A DNA stretch of 64,000 bases from Octopus vulgaris (taxonomy: Eukaryota), in contig OX597822.1 in the NCBI GenBank assembly GCA_951406725.2, forward strand, positions 93,930,001 through 93,994,000, read 5' to 3'. Made by a program: the position numbers and the translations under genes. The notes beneath the pieces were generated by a model. The model ran no database searches. It was not told the origin of the DNA and saw only the letters and a list, made by a program, of their open reading frames with translations. Positions 9,579-15,397 of this stretch are shown one piece after another; the stretch's first letter is position 1, and each line of letters begins with the position of its first letter.

Positions 9579-10306
9579 TAATATTATTTGTTGTTATTAT
9601 TGCTGAAAGCATTTTCCTCTTATGTCATTTCTGTAATTAAAAAGTAATTTTCACAATTAACATCAAAGTTATCAGTTTTGAGATGATAATATTTTACTGC
9701 TTGCTTTATTGAATGAGTCGACCCGTTCGTAGCACCATTCAGTTTGAGATGATATTTTGGTGAGTCCAATTTAGTTAAAATTTTCTGAACTGGGACAGAC
9801 CCCAAACCATTTTTAGACCTTTGAACATTTTGGAAGTATTCTCTTTGCACTTTACCGCTTCAAGATTCATATCAAAACAATGGAGATCTTCAGCCTACAG
9901 GTAAAATGAATCAATAGTTATGGGAATGTTTTCCATATATTTTATACGTGACTAATCAAGGAAAATTATTTCCCAAGCTTTACTAACTGGACAGGTATTT
10001 TGACTTGTGGCTTCTGAAAATCTAAATTTTTGACAATCTGAGCAAACTTAGTATATTGTTCGAATGAATGCAATGAACCAGGCTACTATGAATAACTTCT
10101 TTATCATTTTTGCTTTTTACCTTCCCTGTTTCTATGTCCTAAGGGTTATCGTTTATTTCCCCAAGAATGTTGTCGCTGAATCCGGGATAAAACTACCTGT
10201 TTTTATGATAGATCACATTATTTTCAACAAGTTGTCTTACAGCAATATTTTTAAAACAAGAACACTCAGAGAGCGCAAACCTCTGCCAAAGCAACACCAA
10301 TGTCCT

Positions 10307-12005
10307 TAATTTTTTATTACTCACAAGGGGCTAAAAATAGAAGTTATACATTACAAAGACAAAACAAAGCACATAATCGGGGAATTAAAAGTACAGAAAA
10401 ATCGAGTAAGGAAGAAAAAATAAAAAGAACGAATGAAAATATGAAAATGAATAAAATGAAGCGCAATGCTCACTCGACCCCCGAAGTCGAGTGGTTACAT
10501 TTAGTAATTATTTTGGACAGATTTTTCCCTCTTTTTTCCATTTTTTTTTTTAATCAAAAAGTTCACATCTACATTTTTTTAATATTGTTCATATCAGATT
10601 TTATATTTTTTTCTAAAATTTTTCAACTCTTCATGTTCAACCTCGGGCGACAGGGTATCATACAACACCGGCCCGTCAACCATAGTCACCAATTCTCCAT
10701 ACGAATCCATGAACTCGTCGTATCTATCGTCAGTTAATAGAACACACCTTTCATCCTCCTTGAATTTCTCCATGGGCAGCTTTACCCTTACTAATCCCTT
10801 CCACTTGGATATTCGGATCTTTTCGGTTTGAACGGCAGTTTTTAACATAATTTCTAGGTAACTAAAAATTTTAAACTTCGTATACTGGTAGAATGTGTTT
10901 ATAAAACATCTTTTTTCTTGGCTTTATTGAGAAAATTCTATAGTTTGTAAGATATTTGTTGTTTTTTTAACTTCAATTTCTGCAATTTCAACCAATAAAT
11001 GACGTCCATTGAGGTAAAAAAAACATTCTGTGTCGTATGAATATGTCCCTCGTTTAAGAAACAGATTGGGTTTATTTACATTCGTGAAGAAAAAAAGATA
11101 CCCTACCCCAAGATGGCCCGCGCCGGGGCACTGCGTCCCCACACGGCCTCCCACTCGGCACTCGCAGCAATTCGGCCGACGATCCCCAACAACAACCTTG
11201 AGGGACCCCCCCCTGCAACCTCCCGGCAATCTCCAAAGCTCTCGAAAGTGGCAAAAAGTCACATCTCGACACCGTATCCCCACTGGTTTAACACGCTCAC
11301 TCCTCCCACGGTCCCAACTGGGGACCTTCCGCCTCGGCGGCAGCCAGAACAGCTGCCGTCAACCACTCCGTCTCAACATCTGGTGGCACTCCTCTGACCC
11401 GAACCCGAACACCCCGCCCGCCCCCACACGTGGGCAGCAGCGTACCCCGCCGTTCATAGAACATTGGCGGAATGCGAGGCCGCCCCATCCCCGGCAGCAA
11501 ACCCCACCTCCACCGCTCCAAACTTCCTCCCTAATCACGGATCCCAAGCACTCCTCCACATCGTCCTCCGACAGCATCTCAATCCCACCGGCGGCGACCG
11601 CCCGCGTGCGACATACCACCGTCCAACCGCTCCCACTGCTGACCGTCCCCTCTTGAGGGACCAGCCCCACTGCGCCTCATTCCTTGCACAAACCGCTTGC
11701 CTCCCACCACCTCTTCCATATTCACCCTTATCCGCCTCGGCCCCAACGGTGCAGCTGCTCCCACCGCAGAGGCCCCTGTACAGCCTTCCACAATGAAAAG
11801 CCAAACTTTTCACCCCCACAATGGGGAGAAAAACGGCAAAAACACAACAGAATAAAACAACTACGCGCGAGTTGCTTCAACAATAATTTTCAACAGCAAT
11901 AAAAAAAAAAACAATTTCAAAAATGGACAGTCTCAAAGAGAAAGCCCTCAACAATCCAACCGTGGTTTAAAATGGCGAGACTCAAACAAACAAGTTGCTA
12001 CTCTG
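10307..12005 (-). mobile_element. ORF1-only (HAL1-like) non-LTR retroelement A, A-to-G hypermutated and interrupted by a MITE
   Basis: Minus-strand pieces RKFGAVEVGF..LLPTCGG.RGVRVRVRGVPPDVETEWL, NQWGYGVE, knuckle C-x2-C-x4-R-x4-C, C-terminal RISKWKGLVRVKL..; 3' tail cccttgtgagtaataaaaaa. No RT seen. Confidence 0.75.
10815..11110. mobile_element. Merlin-like MITE, truncated just before its telomeric tract, inside element A
   Basis: TIR starts at 10815; similarity ends at aaagataccctacccc. Confidence 0.85.
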
Positions 12006-12020
12006 AAACAGCGACGTCCT

Positions 12021-13926
12021 TATTTTTTTAATTAAGCACAAGGCCTCAATAGAGAAGGGACAACACAAAAACAGACAAAGCAATACATTGGGGTACATAG
12101 AAACACATATCGAATGAATTATGGATATAATGAAAATGAGAATGAAATGGCTTACTATATTACCCGTGGAACGATCGTACTGACGAGCCCTACGGACGAG
12201 GGATTACGTAAGTGATTCATTCGTTAATAGGCGAAATCGCGGTCTGCGATTAATTCTTGTTTTTTATATATAATTTTCATCTGTCATGCCCGCATATTGT
12301 TCTGGTGTCCGCTGAATTCTTTTCTCTTGAGAACATTCTTTTCTTTGTAGTTTTATCGTAGGTGATTTACTTCTAGCATATGGCTGACCACATAGTGGTT
12401 CTTTAGCCCGCCCCCATAAGTAGGTAGCTCCATTTTACTGTTTTTAAATGAACACTTCATATCGGTCTTGTATCTGTTGGTTTATAACATATACTCTATT
12501 AACTCTTCGAAGGCCACTACGGGCAGCACTTCATGGTAACCAATTTGTATTCCTGTCATCTCTATTCTTTCACCAAACAACTCCTTCAATTTCTCTTCCC
12601 TTTCTTTTTCCAACAAAAAGGGCTTTAAAACCTTCGTTATACTCTTCGGCCGCTAATTTCACTCGGATAACGTTCTTCATCTTGGCAATTCTCTTCTCTA
12701 TCTCTACACTTTTTTGGGTATTGCACCATTGTTCTCAGGTTTCTCCCTTTTAGTGTCACTCTCCTCTCCTCACCAATCTCCCCCTCTACCGCTGGCATTT
12801 CTGTCTATGTCTGCCTCTCATTCTGTGTTGCAATCATCTCTCTTTCATTTTCCTTTCTCTTCTGTACTCTTTCCTCCTCGCTAGTTAATGGTATCTGCGT
12901 TCGTTCCTCACATTTGCTGTCTTTTCATTTTTTCTCTTCTCATTTGTACTCTCTTGTTTTTCACTCTGCTTCTCCTCCCCACTTGCCTTTCTTTTCTTCC
13001 TCGGACTTTTTGGTGGTGAGTCATTACTCTTCTTTCTTTTTACCACTGTGTATTGCTCCTCCATTTTCTCCTCCTCCACGGTTACACCCTCTTCTTCATG
13101 ATATTCCTTTCCTGTCTCCTCCTCTTCGTGTTTCTGGGGACACTTCGTCCGGCAGTATCTGTTCCTCCGCAATCTTGTGGAGGTCTGGCAAGCTTATATG
13201 GACCAACACCTCCAGTCCATACCCCCAGCAGTTCACCACCGTAGTTCTCGATATTTTTATTATCTATGTGTCCTCCTCTGTGTTGAAGAGGATGGCTGTC
13301 ACCAGCCACGCCTCATCAATTTCTGGGAGCACTCTACTTATTCTTACTCTGGCCGCACGTTTGCCACAGTAAGTCGGTAATATTGCCCACTCCGCTGATC
13401 TCAAAGGCACAGTAGAGTATTTCCTCGCTTCTTCTTCGTTCACAAAGCGTACCTCCACTGTGCCGTATTTCCTTCCTCTGGTGTAGAACGTCGTTACGTT
13501 CTTAATTTATCCGAAGCATTCCTCGACTTTTTTGTTTCAATTTTCAATGTTCTGTACACCATTGTTACTATATCCTTTTTATCTGTTACTTCTTTGTGGG
13601 GCGTCAACCTCAGGCTGTCTCCCTCTTTTTTCGATAACTCATTGAATTTCTAAAAATCCTTCTCCTGTAATTCAATTTCTGTAACTTGCAGTCCCTCCGC
13701 TGACAGGCGTTTGCCAGTCACCGCAGCGTAACTGCTCGCTTGCACTAGTGTATCTTCCATAATGTTCACAACTTCATCCACAAATGGAGAAGAAGACTGA
13801 AAACGGTAACAATAAGTTCAACAGGTAACAACAATCCAACAATTCAATGAATATCAGTTAAACAAAAGCGGTACTCACAAGGAGCCTGTACTTTTCCAAT
13901 TCACTAACTCAATAAAACACTAACGA
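12021..13926 (-). mobile_element. ORF1-only (HAL1-like) non-LTR retroelement B, degenerate ORF from ATG at 13760
   Basis: MEDTLVQASSYAAVT..RKYGTVEVRF..ILPTYCGKRAARVRISRVLPEIDEAWL..NCWGYGLE, K/E-rich linker, C-terminal RIAKMKNVIRVKL..; A-rich 3' tail at 12021. Flanked by target copies at 12006-12020 and 13927-13941. Confidence 0.78.
12173..12251 (+). ncRNA. Type I hammerhead ribozyme
   Basis: Stem I GATCGTA/TGCGATT; core CTGACGA at 12180-12186; long stem II GCC..GGC capped by GATTAC-GTAA-GTGATT; GAAA at 12233-12236; near-palindromic stem III ATCGCGGT; GTC triplet with predicted cleavage after 12244. Confidence 0.8.
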
Positions 13927-14150
13927 CAACACCAACGTCCTCTCAACGATTAGCTGGAGAGGATTTTTGAAATGAGAATATCTGAAATAAACTCGACTGT
14001 TCTCACAAACGGAAATACTAAAAATGAACCCGACCGCTCTCAAAAATTAAGTAAAAAACGAAAACTAATCCAGAATCCTTGTCCGGTATCGGATCGATCC
14101 CAAAATCTAATCAGTTCGTTCCAGTCACGAGGCCAAGCATTCCTGAAAGT

Positions 14151-14457
14151 ACGTGATTCCTGTTGTTTATTGAAAAGTATTGTGATTCGTTGGAAATAAA
14201 GAGACACAAAGGGGAATGTGAACTGTGGAAAGTAGACTTTAACGAAGAAAAACTACCACAGTTTATAGAATATAAAGAACTTTAAAAAAGGTGTGGGGTA
14301 GACATAATGGAGAACAGAAAAAAGGAAGCAAGTTATGTTACTCGATGGGGCAAGTTTTCATTTCACATTTTTTCATCTTTCATTATATCATACGTTTTAT
14401 GTCCCCCAATGTGATATATGTCCCTCTTTGTTGGCCCGTTATGGGTAATAAAAAAAT
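14151..14457 (+). mobile_element. 5'-truncated copy of the same L1/HAL1-like family (3' UTR and tail)
   Basis: 17-bp TSD CAAGCATTCCTGAAAGT / CAAGCATCCTTGAAAGT at 14134-14150 and 14458-14474. UTR ttcattatatcat..tatgtcccccaatgt matches the UTR of element B. Confidence 0.7.
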
Positions 14458-14958
14458 CAAGCATCCTTGAAAGTTTCATCTGAATCCATCCAGCGGTTCT
14501 TGAGATATCTTGTCCACAGACAAACAAACAAACACGACTGAAAACAATACCACCCGCCTTCTCTAAGGCGGAAGTTATAAAACTACAGTCGCTACTTGAA
14601 TTTTCGAACCTGGAACTGTTTTTTCCCCGTCATCGCGTACGTTATTCGAAATTTGAATCGCTAGTTCCACCAGCAGTTCGAATTTTATAGGTTAATACAA
14701 ATTACGCTTATGTTAGGCTTGTGAATTGCAGGGAAGGCACGGTTTCTACAAGACACTATGAACATTAATCTATACTAATATTTTTCACAATATGTGGCCA
14801 GTCCAAACTGAAGCGGGAAATAGATCAGATGGAAGCAGAAAAACTGCAGAATAGAATGAAACCACTGTTGAAACACCTCCCCTACATCTTGTAGCCCTAG
14901 ATTAACGTTAGAAAACGCCGAATAAGTATTTGGTAAATCAGATATATAGGCAATCTTT

Positions 14959-15397
14959 GGATCTTTTCGGTTTGAACGGCAGTTTTTAACATAATTTCTA
15001 GGTAACTAAAAAATTTTAAACTTCGTATACTGGTAGAATGTGTTTATAAAACATCTTTTTCTCTTGGCTTTCTTGAGAAAATTCTGTAGTTTGTAACATA
15101 TTTGTTGTTTAATTTCTTGCATTTCGGCAATTTCAACCAATCGATGACGTCCATTGAGGTAAAATACATTCTGTGCCGTATGAATATGTCTCTGGTTTAA
15201 GAAACAGATTGGGTTTATTTACATTTGTGAAGAAAAAAAGATACCCTTCCCCCCACCCCTAACCCTAACCCTAACCCTAACTAACCCTAACCCTAAAACA
15301 GATTGAAATGCAATAGATCAATACTAGAGTCATAATTATGGGTGACAATTTCATATGACACCGCTAGAAAAAACTGCCGTTCAAACCGAAAAGATCC
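14959..15397. mobile_element. Merlin-like telomeric-repeat MITE, complete
   Basis: TIRs at both ends; 8-bp TSD CAATCTTT at 14951-14958 and 15398-15405; (CCCTAA)n around 15257-15296. Confidence 0.92.

Follow-up and report, generated by a model that had tools for sequence, protein, structure and literature searches.

The window, a 64,000-nucleotide stretch of Octopus vulgaris DNA, contains two head-to-tail retroposon units, one of type A and one of the sister type B, inserted in a host repeat. Counts of A>G give the family A positions that read G on the sense (minus) strand, and copies carrying a tract of such changes are termed edited. From the 5′ to the 3′ side of the units, the features are as follows.

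13942–14600, minus strand: host repeat with the fixed insertion site, unedited (A>G 0/47 and 1/25)
13927–13941, minus strand: duplicated target site, 5′ copy (AGGACG TTGGTGTTG), junction motif
12021–13926, minus strand: type-B unit of the sister subfamily, in tandem upstream, unedited (A>G 11/529)
12006–12020, minus strand: target-site copy at the B-to-A junction, junction motif
11801–12005, minus strand: 5′ UTR of the type-A unit, rich in T and with little editing (A>G 4/35 including the junction)
11789–11791, minus strand: ORF1 start position, GTG, placed by comparison with sister copies
11105–11800, minus strand: tract of A>G hyperediting within the type-A unit's ORF1 body, where roughly half of the family's A positions are converted
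11128–11169, minus strand: zinc knuckle (CX2CX4HX4C) in which Arg (CGT) stands in place of His, from the translation (zf-CCHC in sister copies)
10815–11104, no strand assigned: unrelated high-copy repeat, unedited (A>G 2/112)
10307–10814, minus strand: ORF1 3′ end of the type-A unit (stop near 10594) and 3′ tail, unedited (A>G 1/126)
10292–10306, minus strand: duplicated target site, 3′ copy, junction motif

Type-A units measure about 1.75 kb and type-B units about 1.9 kb; their sole coding content is an ORF1 with a CCHC knuckle, and ORF2 is absent between the two target-site copies. An identical 15-base motif lies on both sides of most copies, which also form head-to-tail tandems of mixed A and B units. 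Both types occupy a single fixed site in the host repeat, and empty sites were seen at L067 and L098. The insertion site corresponds to 15 bases a short way in from the 3′ end of this Helentron-like host (13942–14600 and 10255–10306 in the window). This repeat has short sub-terminal inverted repeats, and from its appearance we take it to be Helentron/HINE-like, probably a non-autonomous Helentron. An LTR element or endogenous retrovirus was rejected, as the units have no LTRs and no pol or integrase, and their A-rich tail abuts the target duplication. A Pfam search of the window's own reading frames gave no significant match, and a protein homologue search with ORF1 gave no scoring match among 624 candidates.

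The ORF1 is related to that of a LINE (tblastn E value 8e-26, 33% identity) whose ORF2 is a 1138-amino-acid endonuclease-reverse transcriptase (RT). This related LINE has endonuclease, RT and zf-RVT domains, and its 3′ end lies at (TC)n repeats. A young and abundant LINE ending at (TC)n, with intact 1138-amino-acid ORF2 copies that are 97–99% identical, was observed (L143–L162); we presume that it is Kibi-like. In alignments, the tails of A and B units resemble the tail layout of this young LINE and of the window's common SINE; despite this similar layout, blastn detected no match between the element tail and 19 LINE loci. A partner LINE with the same target site was not found. HAL1 elements are ORF1-only derivatives of L1. 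Judged from its sequence, the element is HAL1-like and derives from a LINE of the Tx1 type, a label taken from the related LINE; it is not a virus. Work on Tx1-clade LINEs describes target-specific elements, one of which inserts into a DNA transposon (PMC4494074). The octopus element resembles HAL1 in being ORF1-only, its ORF1 is homologous to that of a LINE with endonuclease and RT, and its fixed target lies inside another transposon, as that of Xenopus Tx1 does (PMC4494074). In contrast to the Tx1-clade LINEs, the relative that we found sits at (TC)n repeats and the element itself is without RT.

The sense strand of the type-A unit at 11106–11830 contains 16% A and 44% G by base count. The initial annotation had recognized this composition from hand counts of minus-strand A, which were exact (6/60 at 11101–11160, 19/60 at 13321–13380, and 14/60 at 10621–10680). 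However, its comparator, the neighboring B unit, belongs to a distant subfamily (about 57% DNA and 40% protein identity), and A-family copies elsewhere are the right reference. With unedited sister copies as the family state, A>G changes affect 86/178 sites of the window copy in the larger copy set, while the other transitions stay at 3–7% (G>A 12/175, T>C 7/123, C>T 3/102). A smaller copy set gave A>G at 88/186 versus T>C at 8/152 (Fisher p = 2e-19). A DNA search with the stretch returned 46 matches besides itself, at 63–84% identity, and from most of these the window copy differs by about 80–120 A>G, 10–20 G>A and 10–27 T>C. Across 11100–11799, in an alignment lenient to A/G, the A>G rates per 100 nucleotides range from 10/21 to 16/20. 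The family is A-rich and not G-rich, and the substitutions are strand-specific and not symmetric, contrary to the two outcomes that the annotation had named as refuting its view. The tract it had placed at 11106–11830 is real but runs from about 11800 to 11105, the 5′ UTR being nearly unedited (4/35). An insert at 10815–11104 replaces about 300 nucleotides of ORF1 and cuts the tract short; the surroundings (host repeat, inserted repeat, B neighbor and 3′ part of the copy) are unedited. The very high-copy short repeat that interrupts the type-A unit has several copies in the window, including 10815–11104 and 14952–15274.

The ORF1 start is ATG in 21/29 unedited copies, and GTG is found there in 3/8 edited and 0/29 unedited copies. 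Translation of 11169–11128 reads CCECRVGGRVGTQC, exactly as first annotated, with CGT as the His codon (11145–11143); the family residue is His (CAT/CAC in 24 of the 26 unedited copies for which the codon is available), and 4/10 edited copies have Arg instead. Over 113 codons of the window copy, 41 amino acids are changed, 24 of them by A>G alone. A proposed reversion of E to K was in error, since unedited copies have E at that position and K in only 1/26. Read from the sequence, the start codon, the knuckle His and the other A>G amino-acid changes suggest that ORF1 function was lost in this copy.

Contigs from DNA runs of four studies, under three organism labels, matched the tract with 1–8 differences per 0.5–1 kb. 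These were 1 difference in 988 nucleotides of the tract region (contig X1), 8 in 1003 under another organism label (X2), 3 in 841 (X5), and 1 in 523, restricted to the upper part, under the third label (X7). One of the four matching runs may be the source sample, the four coming from four studies. Because contigs from four studies carry it, the tract is genomic and shared and not an assembly error, and the doubt raised at the outset about read support for the G alleles was dispelled. Among the listed sequencing runs that contain the stretch, none was an RNA run. In run X2, 12 bases are duplicated at 11143 and some bases differ (11316–11695), changes that postdate the editing.

The tract had been described for the window copy only; it was confirmed there, yet this copy is not unique. 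A two-state scan, from which the identity and length filters removed L026, L202, L205 and the L049 unit lying upstream, detected edited tracts in 15/52 A and 8/57 B copies, that is at least 23/109 over the two subfamilies. Four further edited A fragments were found outside the scan (A>G 45/117, 16/37, 53/153 and 82/182). These fractions are inflated, as three of the queries were themselves edited copies; among the 40 candidates scored per unedited query, 4–5 (A) and 2 (B) were edited, which is a deflated share. In a strand count of 102 copies, from which L009 and L018 were dropped by identity and length filters, 21 copies were A>G-shifted and 0 were T>C-shifted.

The independence of these tracts was evaluated on a tree built with all A-bearing columns dropped (L018 and L027 were left out by the identity and length filters). 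The 11 edited copies among its 38 rows need 10 changes, with a minimum of 5 set by the starred branches, and a single edited clade is rejected (p-AU 1.7e-17). Edited pairs share about as many sites as predicted from site-wise rates (1778 versus 1689, and 582 versus 528). Two pairs share above expectation (L010/L027, 16/18; L007/L091, 21/26), and these also share sub-lineage bases. At non-A sites, edited and unedited copies are similarly diverged (medians.107 versus.109, p =.54;.080 versus.099, p =.08). This equal divergence of about 8–11% indicates that the editing events were contemporary with the spread of the family. No descendants of edited copies were seen among the copies compared; this does not discriminate on restriction, since source lineages are few in the tree in any case.

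The nucleotide 5′ of the converted sites carries a strong signature. When 21 edited copies were pooled, conversion was.61 after T (181/295),.47 after A (494/1048),.26 after C (138/533) and.13 after G (134/1009; p = 9e-85), and the 5′-G rate lay below that of the other three pooled in 21/21 edited copies. Unedited copies have a nearly flat 5′ context (.04–.06). The depletion of a 5′ G that the initial annotation had predicted was thus found in the pooled copies and also in the window copy taken by itself (10/12 after T, 31/49 after A, 13/27 after C and 15/51 after G; p = 4e-4). The triplet with the highest conversion was TAG (42/55), and slippage in A runs cannot account for conversion at TAN sites. 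CpG decay may lower the 5′-C class; it cannot explain the 5′-G class. Conversion is blind to the reading frame (.33 at first,.28 at second and.39 at synonymous third codon positions), whereas variation in unedited copies is greatest at third positions. APOBEC-type DNA editing was discarded, sense-strand G>A being only 12/175 in the window copy. About 20–66% of sites are converted within tracts, and conversion at this level fits a long duplex edited towards completion.

Metazoan editing sites favor a 5′ U or A and disfavor G according to three papers (PMC9989829, PMC5625713, PMC8586724). One of these also reports that a 3′ T is disfavored in most species (PMC9989829), which the octopus tracts do not show, and another that the 3′-G preference is reduced in invertebrate hyperediting (PMC5625713). 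In the pooled tracts, conversion varied little with the 3′ neighbor (G.37, T.36, C.33, A.28). This 3′ side is weak and gives no choice between ADAR2 and ADAR1, both of which are present. A_deamin matches occurred at four loci and included an ADAR2-like gene with CHAE and PCGD motifs and ADAR1-like exons; the ADAR1-like gene (L219:2966 and 8923) has Gly where ADAR2 has Ser486. Published work ties this Gly/Ser486 position to 3′ preference and reports the ADAR1 Gly for octopus (PMC5625713).

The ends of the tracts vary from copy to copy, for instance anchor positions 1057–1407 in L006 and 19–605 in L100, and no tract extends beyond about anchor position 1460, near the ORF1 stop. In the tails of edited copies, A>G was found at 27/467 sites versus 196 expected (A) and at 7/90 versus 40 expected (B). 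As a guess, the tail is spared either because recognition by the RT needs an unedited tail or because the antisense partner would begin close to the stop codon.

A source for a duplex was sought within the element, and no long inverted repeat was found in either subfamily, the best being 33 nucleotides. At L138 (2943–7669), inverted B copies that are unedited lie at a distance of 2 kb from an edited one. This inverted pair was rejected as a duplex formed in place, as one arm is edited while T>C in the other arm is.02. The related autonomous LINE showed no A>G excess at 39 loci, some of them overlapping, bar one fragment; the loci had been picked by protein score from 16092 candidates, which biases them toward intact copies. 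A diverged 420-nucleotide LINE fragment, possibly edited, was noted at L047:2543–2968 (A>G 28/100, G>A 18/137, T>C 9/78 versus one reference). A generic scan of 14760 alignments produced 13 flag groups, of which three were family units (L049, L027), and L100/L118 matched an AT microsatellite; the L102-linked and L080/L122 groups were discarded on inspection as microsatellite artefacts. A masked scan of 1245 windows outside the family flagged 9 and yielded no new A>G tract: two flags were one family unit and seven were G>A/C>T. Among these, the LINE copy L167 shows marked CpG decay with G>A at 58/168 after C, exceeding its sister copies, and windows with G>A or C>T excess were also observed at L113:3101–3400, L219:7401–7600 and L131:3601–3800. 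In these small or biased samples, the LINE and other repeats are without tracts, an absence that general octopus hyperediting alone would not account for, so the effect may be family-specific.

These data very probably reflect hyperediting of the sense RNA by a germline ADAR in a long duplex, after which a LINE RT wrote inosine as G. We infer that the enzyme was ADAR, the substrate RNA and the timing germline. The sense-only polarity and the confinement to single units point to RNA as the substrate; had first-strand cDNA been edited, the changes would read T>C, and edits made once the copy was inserted would extend into the flanks, which also favors RNA. An old ORF1-only retroposon would have been moved in trans by a LINE RT/endonuclease cutting the fixed site of the host repeat. 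The retroposon's sense RNA would at times have been paired in germ cells, over hundreds of bases, with a complementary RNA. Since there is no internal hairpin, the partner was probably antisense RNA, and our guess is that it was most likely transcribed from the same copies or from their sisters. In some invertebrates, paired sense and antisense RNAs are a known target of ADAR, and coleoids edit repeats in non-neural tissues too (PMC9068888). ADAR would deaminate 20–66% of the adenosines in the duplex, and RNAs with an unedited 3′ tail could still be used in target-primed reverse transcription, where inosine would be read as G and the edits fixed. The retrotransposition of a hyperedited transcript, proposed in the initial annotation, is thus supported; the ADAR-based restriction attached to it is a conjecture, as edited RNAs inserted successfully, and often.

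Four other accounts of the tracts were weighed. Edits of ADAR-edited RNA might have entered after insertion, by cDNA recombination or conversion or by RT switching between edited and unedited templates. Segmental tracts with ends that differ by copy and tails that are always clean would agree with this, but partial duplexes yield the same picture, and the equal divergence of edited and unedited copies at non-A sites is what edits made at insertion predict; we consider this course improbable. Hypermutation by the RT in single insertion events, with C placed opposite template A from a skewed dNTP pool, would likewise affect one strand, stay within a single unit and be indifferent to codon position. 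Slippage models favor changes beside G, however, and the strong 5′-G avoidance with TAN highest is the ADAR rule. Moreover, the tails, the first part to be copied, are clean; U>C, which a skewed pool would produce more readily, does not occur; and the related LINE is without tracts. This origin is rated slightly lower still.

The chance is similarly slim for an adenine deaminase (TadA/ADAT-like) acting on the sense DNA of the new copy, or for ADAR acting on DNA in an RNA:DNA hybrid. The observations are of DNA, which leaves room for its deamination, but editing of first-strand cDNA would appear as sense T>C, found in 0/102 copies, and R-loop editing after insertion would be expected to spill into the flanks, which are clean, and to show both polarities. 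Finally, a G-rich sub-lineage, a reverse G>A direction, GC-biased conversion or an assembly error has a negligible probability. The two pairs that share excess sites (L010/L027 and L007/L091) would suit a sub-lineage, yet a single edited clade is rejected, the A-rich copies keep ATG and His, T/C is unchanged, and independent DNA runs carry the G alleles.

Hyperediting of sense RNA by ADAR before insertion, the reading that we prefer, has partial parallels in known systems. G-to-A edited LTR elements are attributed to APOBEC in vertebrate genomes (Knisbacher and Levanon, PMC4866542; also PMC2873906). Like these, the octopus tracts are strand-biased, clustered, motif-bearing deaminase scars fixed in the genome, many of them in ORFs; unlike these, they are A>G, with an ADAR-type motif, in non-LTR elements of an invertebrate and with RNA as the probable substrate (PMC4866542). 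The APOBEC screen covered LTR elements only, and its 19 invertebrates were at noise level (PMC4866542). ADAR A-to-G hypermutated retroviral sequences are reviewed for RAV-1, ALV and HTLV-2/STLV-3 and share with the octopus tracts the A>G clusters and the reverse transcription of edited RNA to DNA (PMC8586724). The retroviral cases are rare and come from infected cells or culture, whereas the octopus tracts are inherited, non-viral and present under three organism labels and in dozens of copies (PMC8586724). Repeat-directed A-to-I hyperediting in coleoids, described as widespread beyond neurons, has in common the animal group, the repeat substrate and the 5′ motif, but its edits are described in RNA only, whereas those of the octopus retroposon are in DNA (PMC9068888, PMC5625713). 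Human L1 RNA is reported to be unedited and its restriction by ADAR1 to be editing-independent (PMC5224506); the common point is ADAR acting on a LINE RNP, while the octopus copies show massive editing and restriction is only hypothetical. Selection for G at edited sites has also been described (PMC7186786).

Our search of the full-text literature, mostly outside subscription journals, returned no earlier report of inherited ADAR-type hypermutated retrotransposon copies, and inherited ADAR-scarred retroposon copies are likely to be novel. The known genomic deaminase scars in retroelements are the APOBEC G>A changes of vertebrate LTR elements, and to our knowledge A-to-I edits have been regarded as non-heritable. 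The dozens of independent scarred copies imply that an animal germline can reverse transcribe hyperedited RNA that has escaped decay. Edited copies fall under the thresholds of repeat annotation (about 70% identity) and can mimic an editing signal in RNA mapping. Possible editing-based ADAR restriction of retroposons, past germline ADAR specificity and possible retrocopies of edited host mRNAs are now open to computational tests. Tentatively, and with somewhat less than even confidence, we propose that ADAR is a heritable germ-cell mutator of octopus retroposons, rewriting a tenth to a third of the new insertions of some families with loss of ORF1. If this is true, it would be the RNA-level counterpart of APOBEC, and cephalopod genomes would preserve a fossil record of ADAR specificity that could be dated, together with a working route from RNA edits to DNA.
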